This document shows, piece by piece, positions 6,911-58,839 of a stretch of DNA of 64,000 nucleotides; positions within the stretch are counted from its first letter, which is position 1; each line of letters starts with the position of its first letter. The notes below the pieces were generated by a model. That model had not been told where the DNA came from. It was given only the letters and a program-made list of their open reading frames with translations, and did not search any database. The stretch spans positions 13,535 through 77,534 of the IMG/VR virus record IMGVR_UViG_3300042504_002519; one strand, given 5' to 3'. Source of the stretch: a virus. The position numbers and the translations under genes were made by a program.

Positions 6911-7092
6911 GCGCCACCATCGCCCGGCTGCGCCCCTGCCTGGCCGGGCGGCTATCCATTTTTCTGCATACACGGGCCCAGTACTTACGCCAGATCATTG
7001 CTAGGCACCCTGAGGATGGGGCTGCACAGCACGAACTGGAGCTAGTGCTAGCCCAGATCCGATACCTACCCTTTATTGAGGAACGACCATGA
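6907..7092 (+). CDS. Hypothetical protein
   Basis: Overlapping stop/start coupling on both sides. Confidence 0.5.
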   Translation: MSATIARLRPCLAGRLSIFLHTRAQYLRQIIARHPEDGAAQHELELVLAQIRYLPFIEERP

Positions 7093-7469
7093 ACTTACCC
7101 GCTGACCCTACCCGCACCGAGATCTTGGCCTACCTGCTGGCCTACTCAGCCTACTGGCGGGGTGAACTAGAGAGCGCTATGGATGCGGCCAATGTGCCGT
7201 CGAGCAGCATTAACGCCATCCAGGGCGACTTATCTGCCGCCCTGTTTGCTGAAACGACCATGAACTTACCCGCTGACCCTACCCGCTCCGAGGTGCTGGC
7301 CTACCTGCTGGCCTACTCAGCCTACTGGCGGGGTGAACTAGAGAGCGCTATGGATGCGGCCAATGTGCCGTCGAGCAGCATTAACGCCATCCAGGGCGAC
7401 TTATCTGCCGCCCTGTTTGCTGAAATGGCCAGAGTAAACCAAGCCCGTATGGAGGATGACGGCCTATGA
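7089..7469 (+). CDS. Hypothetical protein made of a 171-bp tandem duplication
   Basis: MNLPADPTR... occurs twice, ATGs at 7089 and 7260. Confidence 0.55.
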   Translation: MNLPADPTRTEILAYLLAYSAYWRGELESAMDAANVPSSSINAIQGDLSAALFAETTMNLPADPTRSEVLAYLLAYSAYWRGELESAMDAANVPSSSINAIQGDLSAALFAEMARVNQARMEDDGL

Positions 7470-7907: not shown

Positions 7908-8768
7908 ATGTTGACCACGCGACGGCTATCAGATGAAGTCCTCGAAATCCGGATCCGCTACACCGGGGAGGAAACCTATCACTTTTTGTTGGCCAGCGAC
8001 ATTCACCTGGATAACCCAAAGTGTGATCGCAAGTTATTCTTTTCTCACCTCGACAAAATGAAGGCTCTCGGTGGTAGGGCCTTATTTTTTGGTGATGTGC
8101 TATGCCTGATGCAGGGCAAGCGCGACAAGCGGGGCAGCAAGGCCAGCATTCGCCCCGAGCACCAGGGCGCCAACTACTTTGACTTGGTATTCAAGGAGTC
8201 CGCTGACATTCTGGCACCCTACGGCCAGGAGATCCTAATGATGGGCAACGGCAACCATGAGACAGCCATCATCAACCACCAGGAGATAGATCCCCTGGCT
8301 AATGTGGTACAGCAGCTGCGGGGCCGCCACGGGGCCATCACCGAGCACATGGGCTATCAGGGCTGGATCCGGTTTGTGTTTTACAAAGAACGGGGCCGAG
8401 GCGTCGAGGCTGTTCGGCGGTGCAACCTGTTCTTTCACCACGGGGCCTGGGGTGGTATTGTCACCAAGGGCACCATGGGCGGTGGCCGGTATGCCAGCAT
8501 TGCACCGGACGCGGATATTATCGTCAATGGCCACAATCACGAGCGCAGCATCGTTTCTCACCCTTGCTACCGGTTGATCGAAACCGGCAAGGTGCGGGTG
8601 ACGCCCCGATACCACGTGCAGTCTGGCACCTACAAGGAGGAGTTCGCTGGTAGCAACGGCTGGGCGGTGGAGCGGATCGTCATGCCGAAATCTCTAGGCG
8701 GCGTCTGGCTGAGGCTGACTCCCACTAAGTCCGCTGGCGTTGTGGTTTCACTGGAACCGGCTAGCTGA
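7908..8768 (+). CDS. Calcineurin-like metallophosphoesterase
   Basis: SDIH, GD, GNHE, HHG and GHNH motifs. Confidence 0.85.
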   Translation: MLTTRRLSDEVLEIRIRYTGEETYHFLLASDIHLDNPKCDRKLFFSHLDKMKALGGRALFFGDVLCLMQGKRDKRGSKASIRPEHQGANYFDLVFKESADILAPYGQEILMMGNGNHETAIINHQEIDPLANVVQQLRGRHGAITEHMGYQGWIRFVFYKERGRGVEAVRRCNLFFHHGAWGGIVTKGTMGGGRYASIAPDADIIVNGHNHERSIVSHPCYRLIETGKVRVTPRYHVQSGTYKEEFAGSNGWAVERIVMPKSLGGVWLRLTPTKSAGVVVSLEPAS

Positions 8769-8780
8769 AATCGGTTAACT

Positions 8781-8824
8781 GTGCTATAGTAAAGGACAGG
8801 AACCTTGAAAATTTGGTGGTAAGT
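8781..8824 (+). promoter_or_regulatory. Leader of array A: extended -10 plus boxA
   Basis: TGCTATAGT followed by GAACCTTGAAAA; 36/44 identical to the array B leader. Confidence 0.75.
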
Positions 8825-8826
8825 CG

Positions 8827-9330
8827 ACCCACTTTGGTGGGAGTTTTTCAAGGTCTATCGTCAGTCACCCCTGCTACCGGCTATACTGGCCTGGATCCCA
8901 CTTCGGTGGGGGTTTTTCGCACTCAGTCGGTAGCCACTCGCGGCCAGCGCCAAAGCCTACCCCACCCCAGTGGGGGTTTATCTGGGAGTTTTTCGCCACC
9001 CCTGCTACCGGATGATCGAAACCACGCTGGCCTGGATCCCACCCTGGTGGGCGTTTTTCGCTCGATAAGGGATCCCCATTTTGGTGGGGGTGTATCCGAA
9101 GACTGGCAACGATATGGCCCCACTTCGGTGGGAGTGGTTCTTTCCCCGTGGTTAGCCCCGCGCTGGTGGGGGTGGCTCTCGCTTTGTGCCCGCCCCACCC
9201 TGGTGGGAGTTCGTCCCAACTCTGGTTGTACCCCATCCTGGTGGGGGTTTATCTTGACTATGGCGACTCCCCACTGCTGTGGGAGTGTGTCAATCTGCAG
9301 TTCGCCCCCCACTCTGGTGGGAGTAAAACC
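8827..9330 (+). CRISPR. Degenerate type I-E-like array A (11 repeats plus 1 partial)
   Basis: Hairpins at 8827, 8896, 8960, 9037, 9074, 9118, 9156, 9193, 9231, 9269, 9307; periods 69/64/77, then 37-44 nt. Confidence 0.75.
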
Positions 9331-9380
9331 CAATTGTAAGCAAATTGCGGTAGACTGGATTTGTTAGATGCACCACTCCG

Positions 9381-9405
9381 ACCCCGGCCACGGCTGGGGT
9401 TTTTT
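9381..9405 (+). terminator. Intrinsic terminator closing the array A transcript
   Basis: ACCCCGGCC-AC-GGCTGGGGTTTTTT. Confidence 0.75.
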
Positions 9406-9427
9406 GTTGCCTGGGCATTCTGGATCC

Positions 9428-10051
9428 ATGGCAACCAAGAAACCCACACCAAAGCTACGATCCAAGCATGCGCCCAAGCCAGCACCTGGTGCTAGGCGGG
9501 GCAACCGGCAGGTGGTAAAAACGTCCGGCCAGCCTGCTACGCCAGCCTGCAAGGAGCGGGCTTTTGAGCTGTACTGCGAGCTGGGGCCTCAATGGGCTGA
9601 AATATCCAGGCGACTGAAGGGCGAAGGCTTTAACCGCTGTGGCAATACCACGATCAGCGGCTGGGCCAAAGCAGGCGACTGGCACGCCAGAAAGCTGGCT
9701 TTGTCGGAGTCACCAGGCGAAGCGGCAAAGGTGCCCCACAAGGCCAAAGTAGCACCGCCCCCACCGCCTGCTACGGACATAGGCAGCTACCGCACCAAAA
9801 AGACCAACCTGGAGCACGTCAGGACGGCGATTGAGCAGGTGGTGCAGTCGATCTGCGACGCACGGGCCACCAGCGACCTGCGGGCCATTGGCAGCTTGGC
9901 TACGGCGTTGGTAAAGCTGATTGAGTTGGAAGGCAAATTGAGCCCCGCCACGGCATCCGAGCTAGCAGCCAGGGCCGTAGATCTGGGCCTGGATCCAGAG
10001 CAATTTATGGCCGCATTGGCGGAGCAATGGCGGATCGCCAAGGCTGGCTAG
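9428..10051 (+). CDS. HTH protein, probable terminase small subunit (DUF1804-like)
   Basis: RAFELY...AEISRRL...TTISGWAKAGDW pattern with a helical C-terminus; preceded by the late motif. Confidence 0.5.
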   Translation: MATKKPTPKLRSKHAPKPAPGARRGNRQVVKTSGQPATPACKERAFELYCELGPQWAEISRRLKGEGFNRCGNTTISGWAKAGDWHARKLALSESPGEAAKVPHKAKVAPPPPPATDIGSYRTKKTNLEHVRTAIEQVVQSICDARATSDLRAIGSLATALVKLIELEGKLSPATASELAARAVDLGLDPEQFMAALAEQWRIAKAG

Positions 10052-10681
10052 AACCCCCACCGTGGTGGGGATAGCCTAGCAAGTGAACAACGCCCACAGG
10101 GGTGGGGATGGTTTGACGAGGGAGAGACGCCCACGGAGGTGGGGCTGCGTCTTGCAGGCAGGATCAACGCCCACCAAAGTGGGGCTGGCTGCAAGGACGA
10201 GAGACCCCCACGGTGGTGGGATGTGATGCAGTTCTAGGAAGTACTCCCACCGAAGTGGGGAGGTGTTTGCGAGGGAGCTATCCACCGCCGCTAGGGTTTC
10301 CTTAGCGAGAAACCCCCACCGAAGTGGGGAGGTGTTTGCGAGTTGCCTAGCAGCTCCCCCAGGTTGGCCTGCTCGAGGAACCCCCACCGAAGTGGGGTGT
10401 GCTTGCGAGATGGCTAGGGTGATGGCACCCGACCTAGTAAGGCCAGAGAAACCCCCACCGGAGTGGGGTGTGCTTTGCGAGGGCCCAGCTGGATACCGTG
10501 GCATCGGAGCTATCCACCGAGAAACCCCCACCGGAGTGGGGTGTGCTTTGCGAGGACCGCCAAGCAACTTTAAGCAGGTGAAACAAAATGAGGAGAAACC
10601 CCCACCGAAGTGGGGAGGTGGTTGCGAGACACGGCGCTGGCCGATAGCCAAAACCACGAAAAACCCCCACCGGAGTAGGAT
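10047..10681 (-). CRISPR. Degenerate type I-E-like array B (12 repeats)
   Basis: Long repeat CTCGCAAACACCTCCCCACTTCGGTGGGGGTTTCTC with 29-38-nt spacers (periods 65-74), then five 37-40-nt units. Confidence 0.8.
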
Positions 10682-10689
10682 CCACCGTC

Positions 10690-10733
10690 ACTTACCACCA
10701 AGTTGTCAAGGTTCCTACCTACCACTATAGCAC
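10690..10733 (-). promoter_or_regulatory. Leader of array B: extended -10 plus boxA
   Basis: Reverse complement GTGCTATAGT-N7-AGGAACCTTGACAACTTGGTGGTAAGT. Confidence 0.75.
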
Positions 10734-10782
10734 GGATCCACCAGCCTGGGCACCCTATAAAAAATTCTCTGAGGGATCCACC

Positions 10783-10935
10783 ATGAGCGAGGACATCAAA
10801 GCCCAGGTCCGGGCCATTGCCCATGAAATTGCCCGCCGCGAGGTCTTTGAACACGAGCTCCGCTTCACTTTGTCCGGTGCCCTGCTGGGCGCTGTCGCGA
10901 TGCTAGCCTGGCTGGTAGCCACGGGGCGGTTCTGA
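10783..10935 (+). CDS. Small membrane protein
   Basis: MSEDIKAQ...SGALLGAVAMLAWLVATGRF (manual translation). Confidence 0.5.
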   Translation: MSEDIKAQVRAIAHEIARREVFEHELRFTLSGALLGAVAMLAWLVATGRF

Positions 10936-11201
10936 TGGACCTCCAGGCCATGCTGGATGAGCTAGACCGGCTAGGGGCCATCCTGGACGAGCTGGCCGGG
11001 GACAAGCCACAGCCACCCGGCTGGCCGCTGGGGGCGGATGAGGTTGACTATGGCCATGACATTCTGATCCGCCTGGACCGGGAAGAACCCTGCCGGATAT
11101 GCCAGCAGTTGGCCAACTGGGGATCGCTGTTATTGGGTGAGTATGTCTGCGGCCAGGGCTGCTACGATACCTTGATCTCCCCGTCCTGGGATCCTGCATA
11201 G
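10935..11201 (+). CDS. Hypothetical protein with CxxC...CxxxC
   Basis: TGATG coupling; Cys pattern. Confidence 0.5.
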   Translation: MDLQAMLDELDRLGAILDELAGDKPQPPGWPLGADEVDYGHDILIRLDREEPCRICQQLANWGSLLLGEYVCGQGCYDTLISPSWDPA

Positions 11202-13168: not shown

Positions 13169-14346
13169 TAGAATGTCCCTCCATCAATGATTGTGGCCCA
13201 GGAGATTGTATCGGTAGCGGCATCATAGGCTAGGATGCCATCAACACTGCCACCGCCATCTAGAGCGCTGATCGTGTCTACCGTATTGGCAACCAGGACA
13301 GCACCCTTGGGGATAGTAGTCAAGCCAGTGCCGCCATAAATAGCAGGAATGACTGAGCCATTCCATATACCAGTGGTGATGGTGCCAACGCTGGTCAGGC
13401 TGGAAGCCGTGACGCCAGAGCCCAGGGCGCTAGAGCTAAGGACGGATGTACCATTGATGTAAAACGCTTTGCCAGTCAGTAGGTTTAGATGTTCACTACT
13501 GGTCCAGGCGTCGGTTGCATCCACCCAGTTGAAGGTTTTGTCAGTGGTGCCCTTAAGGGTGATCCCGCCGCCATCTGCACCGGCATCCGTGGGAGAGGCC
13601 ACATCACCCAGGACAAAGTTTTTATCGTCAATGGTGACGGTCGTGCTGTTGATCGTGGTGGTGGTGCCATTGACGGTTAGATCGCCTGTGACGGTGACAT
13701 TGCTGCCAAAGGTGACGGGCTGGGTCGCCTGGGCCATCTGGTCTAATCGACTGGTCCGCACCTGGGTGTCGAAGTCGCTGATCTTAGCCGCTGTCAATGC
13801 AGGAATATCCTCCGCTACCAATGCCCTAAATGTGGGTGCTGCATTGGCCCCGGTCGTAGGTCCAGCAAACACTTGGTTGGCGGCTTGAGTAGCTAGGGCC
13901 GCCGTTAGGGTGCCGCTGGCCGTAACAGGCGATCCGGTGACGGTGAACAAGTTGGGAAGTGATAGTCCTACACTGGTGACGCTACCACCCCCGGCAGCAG
14001 ACACCACCGATTTGACGTAGGCTGTAGTGGCCAGTCGGGTAGAGTCATCGCTCGACGCCTGGGTGACGCCTGTAGCACTGTTAGTGCCGGTGCCAGAGAA
14101 AACACAGGGTCCAGAAAAGGTTTTCGTGCCAGTGACGGTCTGAGTTGTTCCCAGGGTGGTGTAGGCACCAGGGCCAGCAATGGCGTCAATCTGGCTAGCG
14201 GTCCCGTTTTCGCCGCCAGTACCTTTACCATAGTACAGAGTATTGTCAGCCTCGTTATAGGCTAGCTCAGCGTTGGCTAAGACAAGACCCTGAACCCCAA
14301 GAGCACCCGTAGAGGCGCGTCGTTTAATTCGGATGATATTAGACAT
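13168..14346 (-). CDS. Tail fibre protein
   Basis: IRIKR...ELAYNE N-terminus, GDLTVNGTTTTINST, ADGGGI, C-terminal IDGGTF. Confidence 0.75.
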   Translation of the reverse strand: MSNIIRIKRRASTGALGVQGLVLANAELAYNEADNTLYYGKGTGGENGTASQIDAIAGPGAYTTLGTTQTVTGTKTFSGPCVFSGTGTNSATGVTQASSDDSTRLATTAYVKSVVSAAGGGSVTSVGLSLPNLFTVTGSPVTASGTLTAALATQAANQVFAGPTTGANAAPTFRALVAEDIPALTAAKISDFDTQVRTSRLDQMAQATQPVTFGSNVTVTGDLTVNGTTTTINSTTVTIDDKNFVLGDVASPTDAGADGGGITLKGTTDKTFNWVDATDAWTSSEHLNLLTGKAFYINGTSVLSSSALGSGVTASSLTSVGTITTGIWNGSVIPAIYGGTGLTTIPKGAVLVANTVDTISALDGGGSVDGILAYDAATDTISWATIIDGGTF

Positions 14347-20273: not shown

Positions 20274-20846
20274 CTATAGCTTCCACACCCACAGCAGCAA
20301 GGCCGCTAGCCCGCCACTGGTGACCAGCATGATCCATTGCACAAATAGGCCTTGCTTTGTCCACCAGGCCCAGACGGCCTCCACCCATTCCGCCCACCAT
20401 GGCCGGGCACCCCGGGGCGCATCGCCGGTTATTTCAGTGTGGTGGTCATGGCCATGGTCCTGCTTGACTGGCTCAGTCATTAGCTTTGTCCCGCTAGTGT
20501 CGTCATCATCGTGGGATACCCGGTAGATCAGCCCGCCTAGCCAGAGCACATCATGCTCCATCAGGTCTAGCCATAGGCCAGGCTTTAGGGCCCTGCTATT
20601 GATATAGGTGCCATTGGTGCTAAATCCATCCTTCAGCTCCCACAGCCACACCCGTTCCCCCGCCTGGGTAACATCGGTGGCCCGTAGTTCGGCGTGTCGC
20701 TTCGAGAGTCGTGAGTCTATAATGTGAATATCGCATTGTGGATCCCGGCCAATACTCCACAGTCCAGCGGGGGGCGGCCAGGAACCATCCAGCACCCAGT
20801 AGGGGTGTTGGCCATCGACTGGGTGTAGGCAAAGTTTGCGGGTCAT
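20274..20846 (-). CDS. FHA-domain protein with C-terminal membrane anchor
   Basis: IGRDPQCDI...LSKRHA...STNGTYIN (FHA signature); terminal transmembrane helix. Confidence 0.85.
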   Translation of the reverse strand: MTRKLCLHPVDGQHPYWVLDGSWPPPAGLWSIGRDPQCDIHIIDSRLSKRHAELRATDVTQAGERVWLWELKDGFSTNGTYINSRALKPGLWLDLMEHDVLWLGGLIYRVSHDDDDTSGTKLMTEPVKQDHGHDHHTEITGDAPRGARPWWAEWVEAVWAWWTKQGLFVQWIMLVTSGGLAALLLWVWKL

Positions 20847-20931
20847 GGCTATAGAATGCCCAGCCCACCCAGCCTGGGGAATGCTGAGAATGTTGTCAGT
20901 CCCTACCCGGCCTAGGCCGGGTTTCCTGCCA

Positions 20932-22260
20932 ATGGCCACCCTCGGCGCACTAGAGCTAAGAGCAGAATGGAAGAAATGGTTAGTCGCTAGCTATGCTGCG
21001 GTGCCGACCGACTCGGTGGACCTCGACAAGCTAGCCAGGAACCTGCTGCCCTGGGCCCAGCCATTGCTAGAGCCACGCCGGTATAAATGCCTATGGGGTG
21101 GCCGTGGCTCGGGTAAGTCCACCGCTGCGGCTGATGCGTTGCTGATCGAAGGGGCCCGGCGTAAGTGTCGGGTGCTATGCGCTAGGGAATTTCAGAATAG
21201 CTTGGCTGAGTCGGTGCATCAGCTATTGTGTGATCGCATCGAGGCGCTTGGCTTGCAGGACTGTTACCGCATCCTAGATAGCGAGATCCGGGGCCCCCGG
21301 GGTACTCAATTTTTCTTTAAGGGCCTACGCCATAATGTGCGATCCCTCAAGTCCATTGCAGGTATTACCCATGTCTGGGTGGAGGAGGCCCAGACCATCA
21401 GCCAGGAGTCTTGGGACATCCTAACGCCAACGGTACGGGCTTCGGGCTCTGAGATCTGGGTAACCTTCAACCCAGAGCAGGAGTCAGATACTATCTACCA
21501 ACGCTTTGTCGTCAATGCTGAGGCCAGCGACTATGTTTGTCGGGTGAACTGGGACCAGAACCCTTACTTCACCCCAGAGCTAGAGGATGAGCGCCAGCGG
21601 ATGCTGCGCACCGACCCAGACCGTTATGACAACATATGGGAAGGCAACCCGATCCGGTTCAGCAAGGCCCAGGTATTCCATGGCAAGTGGGTGGTGGATG
21701 AATTTGAGCCTGGCGATGACTGGCAGGGGCCACACTTTGGCGCTGACTGGGGGTTTGGGCCAGATCCAACAGCGGCGATCAAGTGTTGGATCCATGAACG
21801 CCAGCTTTATATTGAACGCGAAAGCTATGCCTATGACCTGGCGCTGGATGAAATTGCTACCATCTGGAAGGTTGACGTTCCAGGCATTGCTACCTATCCA
21901 GTGCGGGCTGACAACTCCAGACCGGAGACCATCAAGCATGTCCGGGGCAAGGGCATCGCTGGCCTGATAGCGGCTGACAAATGGCCCAATAGCATCAAAG
22001 ACGGCATCGAATACCTACGCAGCTTCGACAAGATCATCATTCACCCACGCTGCAAAAACCTTAAATTTGAGGCGATGAACTATAAGCGCAAGGTGGACCC
22101 CCATACCCAGGATGTACTACCCATCATCATTGACAAGCACCAGCACCTATGGGACTCATTGCGCTATGCTTTGGATCCATTAATCCAGAACCGATCCACG
22201 CCGTTTGAGTACCGCACCGCCAAGTCGAAGCGGGTGGCCAGCCCCAAGCTAGGGTACTAG
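20932..22260 (+). CDS. terL: Terminase large subunit, PBSX family
   Basis: GGRGSGKS, WVEEAQ, TFNP, GADWGF, HLWDSLRYA. Confidence 0.95.
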   Translation: MATLGALELRAEWKKWLVASYAAVPTDSVDLDKLARNLLPWAQPLLEPRRYKCLWGGRGSGKSTAAADALLIEGARRKCRVLCAREFQNSLAESVHQLLCDRIEALGLQDCYRILDSEIRGPRGTQFFFKGLRHNVRSLKSIAGITHVWVEEAQTISQESWDILTPTVRASGSEIWVTFNPEQESDTIYQRFVVNAEASDYVCRVNWDQNPYFTPELEDERQRMLRTDPDRYDNIWEGNPIRFSKAQVFHGKWVVDEFEPGDDWQGPHFGADWGFGPDPTAAIKCWIHERQLYIERESYAYDLALDEIATIWKVDVPGIATYPVRADNSRPETIKHVRGKGIAGLIAADKWPNSIKDGIEYLRSFDKIIIHPRCKNLKFEAMNYKRKVDPHTQDVLPIIIDKHQHLWDSLRYALDPLIQNRSTPFEYRTAKSKRVASPKLGY

Positions 22261-27073: not shown

Positions 27074-27157
27074 GGGGGTTCTTTAGCGCTATCCCTAGTG
27101 TGCCCACCCATGGATCCATCACCCTGGGCACCCTGGATCCAGCATGACGGATCCACC

Positions 27158-27664
27158 ATGAGTCAGTTTCAGGTTAGTGCCGATGACAGCCAGGTGCAGG
27201 CGATGCTGGCCCGAGCGGCGCGTCGGCTAAACAACATGAGGCCCTTGTATGACGACATTGGGGCCTACATGGAGCGGGATACAGACCAACGCTTCCAGCG
27301 ACAACAGGCCCCGGATGGTACGCCATGGCGTGACCTATCGCCTAATACCTGGGCGGCCAAGCGTAACCGCAAAATATTGAACGAGACTGGCCAGATGCGT
27401 GACTCGCTGGCCTATGAAGCGACTGGCACTGAGGTGATCATCGGCTTTGCTGACAAGAAAGCCCGCTGGCATCAGTTCGGCACCCGGCCCTATACCATTG
27501 TTCCTAAAAATGCCAGGATGCTGGCCTTCATGACCGCTGGCGGCCCTGCCTTCGCTAGGCAGGTAAACCATCCAGGCATTCCAGCTAGGCCAATGCTAGG
27601 CATCAGCCGGGCCAATGTGGAGGAAATTGGCAGCATCGTCGGCGATCACATTGGCAAGCCATAG
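27158..27664 (+). CDS. Virion morphogenesis protein (Mu gpG-like)
   Basis: RF..Q.APDG.PW, IL.ETGQMRDSL, HQFG, IPARPMLG. Confidence 0.85.
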   Translation: MSQFQVSADDSQVQAMLARAARRLNNMRPLYDDIGAYMERDTDQRFQRQQAPDGTPWRDLSPNTWAAKRNRKILNETGQMRDSLAYEATGTEVIIGFADKKARWHQFGTRPYTIVPKNARMLAFMTAGGPAFARQVNHPGIPARPMLGISRANVEEIGSIVGDHIGKP

Positions 27665-52253: not shown

Positions 52254-52498
52254 CCCACCCACCACCACCCGCAGACCCCCGGCCTAGCTGGGGGTTTTGC
52301 TTTGGGCCAGCCCTGGCCAGCCACGACAAAGCCCGCCAGGTGGCCAGCGGGCTGGGATGGGGGAGTGGTGCATAAAAAAGACGGCCTAACGACCGTCCGT
52401 TTTCTAAAAGCGAAATTACTACCAAAGCCCGGGCACCACCCCAGACCAAGAACCAACATGCTAACACCGGCTGCAGAATGTGTCAACAGGCTAGCGGC

Positions 52499-54130
52499 TT
52501 ATAGTTGGGTGTCAAGCGAAAGACCCGGCTGATAGGGCTGGGAGCGTTCTTCCATGTTTATCTGATGCTGCCATGCCCCATGGAAGTCCTTAAACATTTG
52601 CATTTCGTCAGCCGCAAACTTATCAGGCCCTTTGCTGTGCTTCCTTCGATGGGTCTCTTTGCTGAGAAGTGCGCAATTCCTGATTGTCCCGTCTGACCTA
52701 TCTTTAAGCTCTAAATTAAAATGGTCAAATTCACAATCCTTGGTTGAATGGCCAGTCCTAGGGTCTACTATCAAAACACCATTAAAAATATCCCTGCCAT
52801 CTGGGTGTATCTTAAGGAAGATACGCGCAGCTTCACGTTTGACTGAGTCCCGAAAAGGCTCACGTTCAGCATTTAGCTTGTTAAACACGGTATTCATTTG
52901 ATGCCCGACGGTAACAAGCGTTTCCCTGACCTCCCCGACACCCTCCTCTGTCCTAGCAGCAGATGGCAGGACAACCTTTAGCAACACGTTATGGTACTCC
53001 TCCTGTTTTTTAGCGTTTTCTCTCTGCATCTCACAAAGTTCTTCAAACTTTTCATCAACATATTCTCTATATGCAGCAAAGCTAATGTCGCTGTTTGTCA
53101 GGCCAGCGAATCGCTGATCACGGGCCATCCTGGCAGCGTCTTCAGCCACATGCTCTACTGCTGCGGGGGTGGCCTCCTTAGACATCATGTCTTCCTGATT
53201 AAGGGCCTTGGCCTCTGGAGTCTGCGACTGCCTAGCCAGCCATATCACGCCAGCGGGGCTAATTAAGATGAAATGTGGAGACCGCTCGGGTGCGGCTTTT
53301 TCGTTTATCCCCTCTAACCCCCCTTCACTACCGAACTCTGAGTTCGGTAGTGAAGGGGGGTTAAGATGGTTAGGAGGGTAGCATTGTTTGTAGGCGCTCA
53401 GCCTGTCTCCCGTCAGCTTCTCTGACAAAACCGACTGCTCAAGGGGAAATTGCTGTAAATGTTTTTGAATGTTCCTTTCTTCCATGCCCAGGAAAGCTGC
53501 CACCTGCCTGACAGTGAGCCACTGCCGATCTTCAAAGTCAACCCATTCAAATCGGCAATACATTTTGCCAGCAAGGCTTTCGCAATTTCGCTTAAATTCT
53601 CGCTGATCAGGATTTTTGAACCGCTCCAAAAACAAACGGTCCTGCCGGTTAAGTGCAGCTTCTCTGGTTAGATCAGATAAATCACCTGCTCTCGGCGCTA
53701 ACGCACCAGGACTCGGTTCGACTAGCTCAGCATCAATAACTTCAACAGGCACAATCAAGCTGCGTTTTGGCGGTGGATCTCCAGGATGCACAGCATAAAC
53801 ATAGGTAACAGGTCTGCCAATCTTTAGCTTTACAGACTCTTCCCTTATTTTTCCGTTGTCCAAAAGATATTGCCTACGCGACTTGTAGTAAGGTCGCAGA
53901 TATTTCGTATTGCGGACCTTATCTCGCAAGTCATTTAAGGCAATGCCATTAGCAGCTAAACTTAGGATCTTTTCGTCAACAACAGCGTAGACCTCTTCTA
54001 GCGTTCTTTCGACAGGCCCGCTTTTAACCGCTGGCGTCTCCACGGAAAACGACTGCCCTAGCTCAATCCTAGGTTTGAGCTCATCAAAATCAAACAATCT
54101 GATCTGACTGTCGTCGGGAGTACTACGCAT
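52499..54130 (-). CDS. ORF6N/antirepressor-like domain, coiled coil and C-terminal HNH-like nuclease
   Basis: LTVRQVAAFLG...I...GVIWLA; EFDH...NCALL...H..KH; AT-richer than flanks. Confidence 0.55.
   Translation of the reverse strand: MRSTPDDSQIRLFDFDELKPRIELGQSFSVETPAVKSGPVERTLEEVYAVVDEKILSLAANGIALNDLRDKVRNTKYLRPYYKSRRQYLLDNGKIREESVKLKIGRPVTYVYAVHPGDPPPKRSLIVPVEVIDAELVEPSPGALAPRAGDLSDLTREAALNRQDRLFLERFKNPDQREFKRNCESLAGKMYCRFEWVDFEDRQWLTVRQVAAFLGMEERNIQKHLQQFPLEQSVLSEKLTGDRLSAYKQCYPPNHLNPPSLPNSEFGSEGGLEGINEKAAPERSPHFILISPAGVIWLARQSQTPEAKALNQEDMMSKEATPAAVEHVAEDAARMARDQRFAGLTNSDISFAAYREYVDEKFEELCEMQRENAKKQEEYHNVLLKVVLPSAARTEEGVGEVRETLVTVGHQMNTVFNKLNAEREPFRDSVKREAARIFLKIHPDGRDIFNGVLIVDPRTGHSTKDCEFDHFNLELKDRSDGTIRNCALLSKETHRRKHSKGPDKFAADEMQMFKDFHGAWQHQINMEERSQPYQPGLSLDTQL
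53315..53363. repeat. Perfect 24-bp inverted repeat with 1-nt spacer inside a CDS
   Basis: TAACCCCCCTTCACTACCGAACTC-T-GAGTTCGGTAGTGAAGGGGGGTTA. Confidence 0.9.
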
Positions 54131-57922: not shown

Positions 57923-58839
57923 GCGTGTTCCCTCTGTTGGTGTTGGTTCATCTCCCGACGCACCCGCTCGTCATAGCTTTCCGTGGCCAGCTTAGCCTTT
58001 GGCCTGGCTGGCTGCAGGCTGGCTTGGTACTCAGCCCAGAGATATTCCAGTTTATCCCATTTGCCATCTCGCTCCAAGTTTGACACATGGTACATCGCCT
58101 TCGTCTTAGGGTTCATCTGCCCGTCAACAACAATGTGCTTGCCAGCAACCATGAACTCGCAGAACTTTGGCAAGATCTTGCCCCACCCATTCTCCCGCCA
58201 CGGCCTGGGCGCAAACTGGGCCGCGAATGGATCAGGCTTGGATGGATCCACTGCGGCCACCGGCGCGGCGGCGGGCGGCGCAACAGTTCTTTCCGGATCC
58301 AGCTTGCTGGTTTTCACTTTTTTTTCATTTTTGACAGGCGCAATAAAAAAAAGATCTTTGGATAGATCATCTGGATCTGTTCTTACTGGATAGATCGTCT
58401 GCAGATTCTGCACCCCCTCCCCTGCAGATTCTGCAGGCCCCCCCTGCATATTCTGCAGTACCCCCTGCATATTCTGCAGGCCCCCCCCTGCATATTCTGC
58501 AGTGGGGCGGGGTAATTTTGGGTCTGGTTCTGGATCCAGATCATTGGTTTGGATGGCACCAAAGTCGATGAATTGATCGCTTGAGGTTCGGCCGCCATCA
58601 GCCCTGAACCGATCAGTTAGCTGCAGGATGCCTTTAGCCTTGAGGCTATCCCGGGTTTGGTAGATCACTCGCTGACAAAGGCTAGTCATCCTGGCCTGGG
58701 TTTCCACTGACGGCCAGCACCGCCCGTCAGCGCCGATAAAGCTATTCAGGCAAAGTAGTAACAGCTTTTCGTTGCGGCTAAGGCTGGACTCCCAGATGAT
58801 TTGCTCGCGTTGATAAGCAGGGAGGAAAGTTGCGCCCAT
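57919..58839 (-). CDS. Replication initiator (N-terminal winged helix)
   Basis: CWPSVET.A....L..R.I......L...G.L; internal iterons; upstream of dnaB. Confidence 0.8.
   Translation of the reverse strand: MGATFLPAYQREQIIWESSLSRNEKLLLLCLNSFIGADGRCWPSVETQARMTSLCQRVIYQTRDSLKAKGILQLTDRFRADGGRTSSDQFIDFGAIQTNDLDPEPDPKLPRPTAEYAGGGLQNMQGVLQNMQGGPAESAGEGVQNLQTIYPVRTDPDDLSKDLFFIAPVKNEKKVKTSKLDPERTVAPPAAAPVAAVDPSKPDPFAAQFAPRPWRENGWGKILPKFCEFMVAGKHIVVDGQMNPKTKAMYHVSNLERDGKWDKLEYLWAEYQASLQPARPKAKLATESYDERVRREMNQHQQREHA
58399..58502. repeat. Origin iterons inside the initiator gene
   Basis: CTGCA(G/T)ATTCTGCA five times at about 22-bp spacing, next to A/T tracts. Confidence 0.8.

Follow-up and report, generated by a model that had tools for sequence, protein, structure and literature searches.

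In 2023 Camara-Wilpert et al. described Racr RNAs, which derive from solitary repeats, yield products without a 5′ handle and form subcomplexes of Cas6 and Cas7 in which neither Cas5 nor Cas8 is present (Camara-Wilpert et al., 2023; PMC10651486). Natural short spacers, known as psi-spacers, give rise to Cascade in which the number of Cas7 subunits is reduced (Liu et al., bioRxiv 10.1101/2024.10.29.618823). In Cracr the psi-spacers are about 17–27 nt long, stand in arrays of two or three and work with host Cas proteins; the units copy the host's CreR or CreA and aim at a known promoter. A mark of CreA, CreR and Cracr RNAs is that they match the promoter of a cas or toxin gene at no fewer than about 9–11 PAM-proximal positions (10.1101/2024.10.29.618823).

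The effect of spacer length was worked out with the type I-E Cascade of E. coli, where spacers of 14, 20 and 26 nt (32 minus 6k) are processed and the complex loses one Cas7 for every 6 nt removed (Kuznedelov et al., 2016; PMC5159557). Primed adaptation still occurs with a spacer of 14 nt (PMC5159557). Viruses also carry CRISPR mini-arrays of one or two spacers, which use host Cas proteins and take part in conflicts between related viruses (PMC11656645).

The locus described here was found in a stretch of 64,000 nt (the window; positions 13,535 to 77,534 of IMG/VR record IMGVR_UViG_3300042504_002519). The source is a lake-water phage, whose whole genome contig measures 77.5 kb; roughly 20 lake-water metagenomes contain it. 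On balance, arrays A and B of this locus are best regarded as belonging to a minimal type I-E-like system, encoded by the phage itself, that has four CRISPR arrays. All four are two-tiered, with long units followed by short units. A search of the literature found no published description of such a system, the phage record collection gave no match, and neither an Rfam family nor a tRNA was detected.

Array anatomy and the phage-encoded Cas proteins

The motif CCCAC-N4-GTGGG-N-GT-NNN-TC, allowing up to one mismatch, occurs 28 times in the window, compared with 0.04 expected from shuffled sequences. Arrays A and B converge on a gene for a protein of 207 amino acids, and their leaders form a 44-nt inverted pair (Table 1). 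A common leader, GTGCTATA[G/C]T ... AGGAACCTTGACAACTTGGTGGTAAGT, stands upstream of all four arrays in the genome, and because it fixes the orientation of each array, the orientation of the handle is set independently of the handle itself. In arrays A and B the short blocks are preceded by long units of 64–77 nt; overall, short-tier units measure 35–50 nt and long-tier units 56–79 nt. The repeat of the array B long tier has 37 nt and reads CTCGCAAACACCT, then CCCCAC-N4-GTGGGG, then GTTTCTCG.

Table 1. Positions of the arrays and associated genes (window coordinates unless stated otherwise)
Feature	Position	Strand	Description
cas6e, cas7e, cas5e	L001 4823-7277; 6-9 kb upstream of window		profile matches
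Array A leader	8781..8826	+	extended -10-like box TGCTATAGT at 8782-8790
Array A long tier	8827..9052	+	4 hairpins, from 8828; hairpin-to-hairpin distances 69, 64, 77 nt
Array A short tier	9053..9322	+	7 predicted Cas6e products of 37, 44, 38, 37, 38, 38, 38 nt, equal to the hairpin distances; beginning at 9053, 9090, 9134, 9172, 9209, 9247, 9285
Array A terminal unit	9323..9405	+	degenerate handle GTAAAAC; motif CCAATTGTAAGC at 9330-9341
Terminator-like hairpin and T run, array A terminal unit	9380-9405	+	
207-aa gene between arrays A and B	9428..10051	+	helix-rich N domain (39-92), disordered linker, helical C domain (predicted)
Array B short tier	10055..10244	-	5 predicted products of 39, 37, 40, 37, 37 nt, equal to the hairpin distances; 5′ ends at 10244, 10205, 10168, 10128, 10091
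Array B long tier	10245..10680	-	7 hairpins, leftwards from the leader at 10679; distances 65, 74, 73, 71, 68, 69 nt (range 65-74)
Array B leader	10681..10733	-	extended -10-like box as in array A leader

A sequence-only reading of this DNA had noted the tight spacing of the leader-distal hairpins and the retention of a GT-NNN-TC handle amid differing loops and linkers. Its seven short-tier distances in array A and five in array B are correct to the base. GT-NNN-TC follows the hairpin in every non-terminal unit, corresponding to handle positions G1, U2, U6 and C7; the array-final units alone depart from it (GTAAAAC, GTTCTAG, GTCCAGT, GTTTTCG). Within an array, the loops and the linkers of 13–16 nt (one of 20 nt) vary from unit to unit. 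The assignment to Cas6e-type CRISPR hairpins with a 5′ handle also held, since ordinary type I-E arrays elsewhere, with units of 61 nt, have as their repeat this same hairpin with an 8-nt handle starting in GT. The notion that the short tiers are merely “spacerless 37-nt repeats” placed head to tail was rejected: comparison of the linkers with CTCGCAAACACCT gave a mean z of 0.13, with p < 0.05 in 4 of 64. The exceptions that resemble this 5′ part of the repeat are the 48-nt unit and perhaps two units of array B.

Each short product predicted from array A consists of an 8-nt handle, a guide of 13–14 nt (20 nt in one case) and a hairpin. The expected 3′ hairpin is present in the lowest-energy fold of six of these seven units, the exception being the 44-nt unit at 9090; minimum-energy folds of whole tiers are uninformative because all the stems are interchangeable. 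Contigs from RNA libraries cover array A at 9133-9371 (no differences), 9127-9248 and 9038-9179, and array B at 10022-10143, again with no differences. Several short units are spanned by these contigs, some from DNase-treated libraries, although they are contigs only and could include DNA.

Genome-wide there are 52 oriented hairpin units of the form CCCCAC-N4-GTGGGG followed by GTNNNTCN, spread over more than ten loci including the cas operon. One to four short units lie directly 3′ of the cas6e and cas5e stop codons on the coding strand, and other gene ends are arranged likewise. A tyrosine recombinase gene adjoins another array of this genome.

The sequence-only reading had looked to the host for Cas6e, but the phage has its own: Cas6e (PF08798, 1e-26), Cas7e (PF09344 at 2e-66; TIGR01869 above cut-off) and a short Cas5e (TIGR01868 at 4e-31; also PF09704). 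Searches of the 77.5-kb contig gave no match to Cas1, Cse2 (Cas11), Cse1 (Cas8e) or the Cas3 core, and thus no recognizable Cas8e, although a small, diverged Cas8-like gene may be present. Three relatives, including one with direct terminal repeats, likewise yielded neither the Cas3 core nor Cas1. CheckV puts the completeness of the contig at 69%, so further cas genes of this genome may be missing from it.

The 207-aa protein is 95–97% identical in the IMG/VR relatives, where its gene is always found between the same two arrays; identity is 95–99% in metagenome loci and 54–82% in more distant homologues. It has no match in Pfam, in PHROG or by fold, and its structure model has a pLDDT of 70. 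Both short tiers abut the gene, and the last hairpin of array B begins 4 nt after its stop codon.

Selection on the RNA and the six-nucleotide pattern

Among 157 distinct hairpins, handle-strand variants of the inner stem pairs comprise 30 G·U and 2 A·C, indicating that selection acts on RNA. Inner stems differ at 0.013–0.048 per site, compared with about 0.2 at four-fold degenerate sites of the flanking genes, and handle positions 3–5 and the loops show about 0.33–0.38 differences per site between relatives. Linker divergence is 0.057, a value that depends in part on the choice of orthologues; an alignment-through estimate, which mixes non-orthologous units, is 0.31. The linker and handle that follow cas6e are identical in two relatives, despite differences of 0.43–0.46 at the four-fold sites of cas6e.

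Fifteen related phage contigs and loci served for comparison, and this locus is two-tiered in all ten related loci examined. The two tiers behave differently between strains. The 72 long units represent 66 families of spacers, and the long spacers of array B are almost all strain-specific, whereas many short units are common to strains; two relatives have exactly the linkers and handles of the array B short units that begin at 10128 and 10091. The order of the units changes from strain to strain, showing that repeats recombine frequently. The earlier description of conserved spacing despite “sequence drift” is accurate insofar as linkers differ from unit to unit; it does not extend to the individual units, many of which are conserved between related phages.

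Substitutions in the short-guide families are not evenly distributed. Counting guide positions from the 8-nt handle, positions 6, 12 and 18 carry 13 of the 34 substitution events on 31 of the 210 sites. The excess is seen in 11 of the 14 families, and the other five registers have 0.07–0.19 events per site; positions 6n + 3 are also mildly raised (7 events on 36 sites). The probability is 7e-4 by a binomial test and 4e-4 by permutation, for 34 events in 14 families and a hypothesis that itself arose from inspection of the data. The concentration of substitutions at positions 6, 12 and 18 is the “5+1” signature of Cas7. Target-pairing guides would be expected to be kept between strains with changes at these positions; inert linkers would not.

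The lengths of the short guides are also quantized. Among 174 distinct units, 71 have guides of 12–16 nt, 1 of 17 nt and none of 18 nt; 17 have 19–21 nt, none 22–23 nt and 4 have 24–25 nt, and from 26 nt up to the long class there are none. The modes at 13, 19 and 25 nt equal 37 minus 6k and follow the 6-nt Cas7 step seen in E. coli Cascade with shortened spacers (PMC5159557). With the G·U asymmetry, this bears out the earlier suggestion of selection on the RNA and on unit length.

The short units look like functioning mini-guides rather than decoys or decayed repeats. We incline to the view that they are hard-wired mini-crRNAs, carried in shortened Cascade-like complexes and having a regulatory role. 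The conserved leader would drive transcription of each array, its leader-proximal tier supplying long, fast-changing guides, some of which match alleles of related phages, and its leader-distal tier the inherited short units. From the hairpin and handle we infer that phage Cas6e cuts the short units at the base of the hairpin, releasing RNAs of about 37–39 nt (or about 43–45 or 48–50 nt). Each would comprise an 8-nt 5′ handle (G1 U2 NNN U6 C7 N), a guide of 12–16 nt (or 19–21, or 24–25) and a 3′ hairpin. The products would presumably be loaded into complexes in which Cas5e and Cas6e join two to four copies of Cas7e, and the guides would pair with conserved targets in 5-nt segments separated by a flipped-out sixth base. 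The brevity of the guides and the lack of Cas3 suggest binding without cutting. The role would likely be regulatory, as for CreA, CreR and Cracr, rather than the sequestration of Cas proteins.

A more specific and more tentative proposal, which we consider possible but would not yet favor, is that the system constitutes a natural multiplexed “mini-Cascade.” A Cas3-less complex of Cas6e, Cas7e and Cas5e, with fixed guides of 12–16 nt from the second tier of every array, would repress fixed sites in host or phage DNA, and the first tier would act against rival phages. The number of Cas7 subunits would be two for guides of 12–16 nt and three or four for those of 19–21 and 24–25 nt. A guide that pairs over 10–13 bases is poorly specific on the scale of a genome, which counts against the guide reading.

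Searches for targets and for a host

For the long units, candidate targets were found nearby. The array A spacer at 8997-9023 matches the upstream phosphoesterase gene (8559-8585) at 25 of 27 positions in the phage's own allele and at 26 of 27 in the allele of its relatives, and spacer 1 of array A matches a relative's phosphoesterase allele at 18 of 18. The long units thus plausibly aim at rival phages, in agreement with the offensive role that the sequence-only reading had assigned to them.

Targets of the short guides were sought in four phage genomes by anchored exact matching and with each sixth base masked, the latter both within each genome and across the four. Matches were about as frequent as in the controls; a slight surplus was due to common GC-rich words, and no shared PAM was seen. 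Two 19-nt guides searched against IMG/VR matched the relatives' own arrays and one or two stray sequences each, three in all, in AT-rich contigs and at chance level. The match of TTGACTATGGC, from the guide at 9246, to the window at 11044 was rejected, as it is absent in relatives and shows no co-variation.

No short-tier guide matched the cas promoter region. The only match there is that of the array A terminal unit, over the 12 nt of CCAATTGTAAGC; it is found in genomes G001 and G003 and in two metagenome loci, 8–9 nt from the handle. In G002 the terminal guide does not co-vary with the cas promoter. The shared sequence belongs to a longer motif of 20 nt, TTGACACCCAACTATAAGCC, which recurs elsewhere, and related motifs are present in the genome. 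It is more likely to reflect a shared promoter or operator motif.

When species-representative genomes were searched for a host by means of the exact repeat, most of the matches were single and terminator-like. Homologues of Cas7e were present in 3 of 401 sampled genomes of Cyanobacteriota, and the spacers of three candidate arrays did not match the phage. The sigma factor had one match in a protein atlas, which is uninformative on the host.

Alternative explanations and comparison with described systems

The sequence-only reading had taken the short units for RNA anti-CRISPR decoys of the Racr kind. As framed here, guide-less repeat RNAs would soak up the Cas6, Cas7 or Cas5 of type I-E systems in the host or in rival phages. 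Phages are known to deploy Racr and crRNA-like RNAs that act as competitors (PMC10651486; 10.1101/2024.10.29.618823), a tandem series would supply more of the RNA, and the hairpin with its GT-start handle is the repeat of ordinary bacterial type I-E arrays. Many short-unit handles (GTGGATC, GTGAGTC, GTGTGTC) look nearer to the host-type GTGAACC than to GTTTCTC of the phage's own long units. A decoy, however, would also titrate the phage's own Cas6e, Cas7e and Cas5e, and the searches above did not lead to a host that has this repeat. Racr products are without the 5′ handle (PMC10651486), the signature of which is kept in every predicted short product here; and a decoy needs no particular linker, whereas these linkers persist from strain to strain and tolerate changes in a 6-nt pattern. 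We consider decoys unlikely. Those linkers also weigh against a different role for cleavage, in which the units would be Cas6e processing or stabilizing cassettes, serving to trim transcripts, to cap 3′ ends with bound Cas6e and to shield the enclosed gene from the two array transcripts that converge on it, the small RNAs being by-products. The placement of short units right after the stop codons of cas6e, cas5e and other genes, on the coding strand, is what such cassettes would look like, as are the short tiers adjoining the 207-aa gene and the array B hairpin just past its stop codon. Cleavage alone leaves unexplained the conservation of handle positions 6–7, the quantized lengths, the strain-conserved “5+1” linkers and the occurrence of five to seven sites in a row, and this explanation too is given a low probability.

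Two further readings are already disfavored. The short tiers might be decaying array ends, old repeats with spacers truncated by slippage or recombination, functionless and persisting by descent. In ordinary arrays, too, the trailer end is the older part, held in common by strains and often degenerate; no Cas1-Cas2 that could renew the arrays was found in these phages, and unit order is reshuffled. Decay would not be expected to hold stems so far below the four-fold rate with changes almost all to G·U, to leave narrow length classes separated by empty gaps, or to preserve the linker and handle after cas6e while cas6e itself diverged; we find it quite improbable. Finally, the hairpins could be sites in DNA, either for recombination or for binding by the enclosed helix-rich protein, including the pac sites for a small terminase that the sequence-only reading had named as a finding that would overturn its view. 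The large inverted arrangement of two arrays around a gene with a helix-turn-helix-like N domain, and the recombinase gene beside another array, would suit such a function. Tolerance of G·U on one strand makes no sense for duplex DNA, though, and the motif is asymmetric, with a handle on one side only and an orientation that follows the leader. The units occur at more than ten loci, some inside the cas operon, TerL lies 11 kb away (window 20836-22260), and the enclosed protein has no terminase match in Pfam, in PHROG or by fold. A DNA-level function is very hard to credit.

If the short units are guides, they represent natural Cascade-type complexes with two or three Cas7 subunits, so far only made in the laboratory, and a fixed, inherited guide set beside a fast-changing one on a single transcript. 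Ten to 13 paired bases would then be enough for a biological function, and strings of phage repeats without normal spacers need not all be decoys. Should the mini-Cascade reading be true, this would be the shortest natural class of type I guides and an array with two functions. It would bear on the minimum size of an RNA-guided DNA binder and on the origin of type I effectors from simpler complexes, and would be relevant to compact gene-repression tools.

With canonical type I-E arrays the locus shares the Cas6e hairpin, with its 6-bp C/G-rich stem and 4-nt loop, the 8-nt handle and cognate Cas6e, Cas7e and Cas5e. The canonical unit is 61 nt long (29-nt repeat, 32–33-nt spacer), whereas units here measure 35–50 or 56–79 nt, and the loops and handle positions 3–5 of the repeats are variable. 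Like viral mini-arrays, the long tier has spacers that match alleles of related phages; those arrays leave the short tier unexplained. The natural length classes step by 6 nt, as do the shortened spacers of E. coli Cascade, but the latter are laboratory constructs in a full system with Cas8e, Cas11 and Cas3, whereas the classes here are natural and inherited and neither Cas3 nor Cas11 was found. Like the short units here, Racr, whose active product is a Cas6-bound small RNA, comes from CRISPR repeat hairpins that phages carry with no spacers of the normal kind. Racr mimics the host repeat; the repeats here match the phage's own system. Unlike in Racr, the units are in tandem, their predicted products have a conserved handle, and the sequence between the repeats is conserved.

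The units resemble CreA, CreR and Cracr in being flanked by repeats, in having spacers below normal length and, for Cracr, in forming small viral arrays. Those RNAs are processed by Cas6, loaded into Cascade with fewer Cas7 subunits and bind without cutting, steps which the short units would presumably share. Unlike in Cracr, the guides are mostly of 12–16 nt; arrays A and B hold five to seven of them in succession and another array up to about ten, and such guides make up the distal tier of every array of a phage that encodes Cas6e, Cas7e and Cas5e. The system is best read as a variant of the crRNA-like regulatory RNAs.

Two-tier arrays and phage-encoded Cas proteins

The window covers positions 13535-77534 of a single virus contig of 77,534 bp, and near-identical sequence is present in lake-water metagenomes. 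Two of the four CRISPR arrays of the phage, A and B, lie in mirror layout around a 207-aa gene. At the core of their repeat, a hairpin of CCCCAC-N4-GTGGGG runs into GT-NNN-TC, part of an 8-nt handle. The window contains 28 copies of this motif where 0.04 would be expected, and the whole genome holds 52 oriented units. The tight leader-distal spacings described in the sequence-only reading proved exact on remeasuring. All four arrays are preceded by the same leader, whose extended -10-like box, TGCTATA(G/C)T, faces the array along the handle strand. In three of them long units are succeeded by a run of several short ones; in the fourth, one 43-nt unit closes the array. Other short units form clusters of one to four behind stop codons, for example those of cas6e and cas5e.

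Features of the locus and of other repeats (window coordinates; L001, coordinates of the whole contig)
Feature	Position	Strand	Detail
Divergent gene	L001 3291-4391		opposite cas operon; no family match
Motif CCAATTGTAAGC, 12 nt	L001 4143-4154		cas-operon promoter region
Nuclease-like gene	L001 4161-4823		first in cas6e-cas7e-cas5e operon; weak SfsA/PD-(D/E)xK match
Cas6e	within L001 4823-7277		PF08798, 1e-26
Cas7e	within L001 4823-7277		PF09344, 2e-66
Cas5e, short	within L001 4823-7277		TIGR01868, 4e-31
Two short units	L001 5515-5565	coding	between cas6e and cas7e
Three to four short units	L001 7285-7420	coding	3' of cas5e; three to seven across relatives
171-bp unit	7069-7410		two tandem copies, 94-97% identical, within open frame 7089-7469
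Phosphoesterase-like gene, copied part	8544-8585		upstream of array A
Mirror layout	8781-10733		leader, array A, 207-aa gene, array B, inverted leader
Leader, 44 nt			before array A, inverted copy ahead of array B
Array A		+	distances 69, 64, 77, then 37, 44, 38, 37, 38, 38, 38
Array A long spacers	8842-8886, 8997-9023		copies of phosphoesterase-like gene
Motif CCAATTGTAAGC, 12 nt	9330-9341		directly 3' of array A, 5' of 207-aa gene
Terminator-like hairpin and T run	9380-9405		between array A and 207-aa gene, ~25 nt 5' of ATG
207-aa gene	9428-10051	+	between arrays A and B
Array B		-	distances from leader 65, 74, 73, 71, 68, 69, then 39, 37, 40, 37, 37
GGATCC	10775-10785, 27135-27161		also in many short-unit handles
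Motif TTGACACCCAACTATAAGCC, third site	about 52490-52520	-	
23-nt unit CTGCATATTCTGCAGGCCCCCC	58399-58503		~4.7 copies, CTGCA..TGCAG palindrome in each; iteron-like

The contig encodes Cas6e, Cas7e and Cas5e. No Cas1, Cse2, Cse1 or Cas3 core was detected in it, and the contigs of three relatives, one of them carrying direct terminal repeats, likewise yielded neither a Cas3 core nor Cas1. Ordinary type I-E arrays of other organisms, with 61-nt units, use the same hairpin and a GT-start 8-nt handle as their repeat. Because the phage has its own cas6e, cas7e and cas5e together with a repeat of this type, the arrays belong to a minimal I-E-like system of its own, and the host Cas6e invoked in the sequence-only reading is unnecessary. 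The nuclease-like gene and the divergent gene might fill the roles of the absent large subunit and nuclease. With short units inside the cas operon, its transcript may itself be a substrate of Cas6e.

Read on the handle strand, the inner five stem pairs of 157 distinct hairpins from the phage and its relatives vary by G·U pairing in 30 cases, by A·C in 2, by other mismatches in 2 and by compensated pairs in 2. Since the opposite strand would turn the G·U pairs into A·C mismatches, selection acts on the handle-strand RNA. The expected 3' hairpin was present in the predicted product fold of 30 of the 32 short units of the phage genome. Metatranscriptome contigs from four libraries, two of them DNase-treated, cover short units at 9133-9371 and 10022-10143, both difference-free, and at 9127-9248 and 9038-9179; they show presence in RNA libraries, and that only.

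Length classes and substitutions of the short guides

In E. coli the segment from handle to hairpin is 37 nt, composed of a 32-nt spacer and 5 nt of repeat. Across 174 distinct units this segment, here the guide or linker, measured 12-16 nt in 71, 17 nt in one, 19-21 nt in 17 and 24-25 nt in four; lengths of 18 nt, 22-23 nt and 26 nt up to the long class were absent. The modes, 13, 19 and 25, equal 37 minus 24, 18 and 12, and by analogy would imply Cas7 counts of two, three and four rather than six. E. coli Cascade forms on 14-, 20- and 26-nt spacers with a proportionally smaller number of Cas7 subunits, and adaptation is still primed by a 14-nt spacer (PMC5159557). Natural host and viral crRNA-like RNAs with short psi-spacers likewise give shorter complexes (bioRxiv 10.1101/2024.10.29.618823).

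The 94 distinct short linkers were sorted into 14 families, each of a single length and with no more than three differences, and variant states were counted per column from the first base after the handle. Positions 6, 12 and 18 held 13 of the 34 substitution events (7 at 14 sites, 5 at 14 and 1 at 3, respectively), or 0.42 events per site compared to 0.07-0.19 in the other five registers. This excess, seen in 11 of the 14 families and not driven by any one, gave a binomial p of 7e-4 and a permutation p of 4e-4 in a test with few events that was prompted by inspection of the data, and in which positions 6n+3 were also mildly raised. Positions 13-15 are likewise loose. In type I complexes, as is well established from structures and repeated in PMC5159557, each Cas7 spans 6 nt, and every sixth base is flipped out and unpaired with the target. 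As the changes pile up at flipped-out positions, the pattern indicates that a Cas7 backbone probably grips the linkers in the canonical register and that positions 1-5 and 7-11 are constrained, most simply through pairing with a conserved target. A coding origin is unlikely because units of 37-38 nt change the reading frame from one to the next.

Variation among relatives and the cas-promoter motif

Relatives comprised three IMG/VR contigs, six metagenome loci and five further IMG/VR contigs. The two-tier layout surrounds the same 207-aa gene in all ten loci examined. One other relative, a 4,996-bp IMG/VR contig, carries 12 long units and then at least one short unit distally. The 72 long units represent 66 spacer families, and long spacers therefore turn over fast. 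Array A spacers match phosphoesterase alleles of relatives at 18/18 and 26/27 positions and the phage's own copy at 25/27, which suggests that long spacers may target close relatives.

Short units are often common to several strains, in reshuffled order. Shared ones differ per site by 0.013 in the inner stem, 0.34 at handle positions 3-5, 0.33 in the loop and 0.057 in the linker, the last biased downward since orthologues were picked out by their linkers; four-fold degenerate sites of flanking genes differ by ~0.2. An alignment running through the arrays, with non-orthologous units mixed in, gave 0.31 for the linker. Units fixed by synteny are the cleaner comparison: the unit trailing cas6e keeps its handle and 13-nt linker unchanged in two relatives in which the four-fold sites of that gene differ by 0.43-0.46.

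Anchored, masked, within-genome and across-genome searches of the phage and its relatives gave no excess of short-guide targets over controls, and two 19-nt guides matched IMG/VR at chance level only; searches for the host likewise identified none. The terminal unit of array A does share 12 nt with the cas promoter region. The match is probably not a guide-target pair: it forms part of a recurring DNA motif, and its distance from the handle varies in relatives, which carry CCAACTATAAGCC at both sites within the 20-nt motif TTGACACCCAACTATAAGCC. The element looks like a promoter or operator shared by the cas operon and the enclosed gene, possibly served by the phage's own SigF-like sigma factor, and the 207-aa gene may thus be co-regulated with the cas genes. 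The terminator-like hairpin before this gene is kept across all relatives with altered stem bases; it may act as an attenuator, or it may be a last repeat that has degenerated. GGATCC, a frequent sequence, forms the handle GTGGATCC in many solitary units, and GGATCCACCATG lies 5' of some start codons.

Function of the short tier and comparison with known systems

We lean slightly towards short units that work as mini-guides. The sequence-only reading had proposed them as possible decoys of the RNA anti-CRISPR (Racr) type. Such RNAs carry nothing like a handle at the 5' end and do not depend on a particular linker (PMC10651486), and the proposal fails on both traits; decoys would also poison the phage's own Cas complex. 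Pure processing or insulation sites explain the data in part, accounting for the units behind stop codons, but leave handle positions 6-7, the length classes and the every-sixth-base pattern unaccounted for.

Neutral decay is contradicted by the conserved stems and by the excess of G·U over A·C variants. The same asymmetry speaks against hairpins acting as DNA sites, including the pac region once offered as an alternative. Further points against such sites are the spread of the hairpins over many loci, the 11-kb distance to a TerL gene, and an enclosed protein that had been considered for a small-terminase role and shows no terminase signal.

The literature search found no paper on such a system. 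Closest are crRNA-like regulatory RNAs (CreA, CreR and viral Cracr arrays), laboratory short-spacer Cascades, Racr RNAs and viral mini-arrays. By analogy, the short tier would work most like the crRNA-like regulatory RNAs, and it stands outside the Cracr class. Its guides, for which no promoter target was found, are shorter (12-16 nt) than those of Cracr arrays; its runs are longer, at five to seven units each in arrays A and B and about ten at most in another array, and, unlike Cracr carriers, this phage owns Cas proteins.
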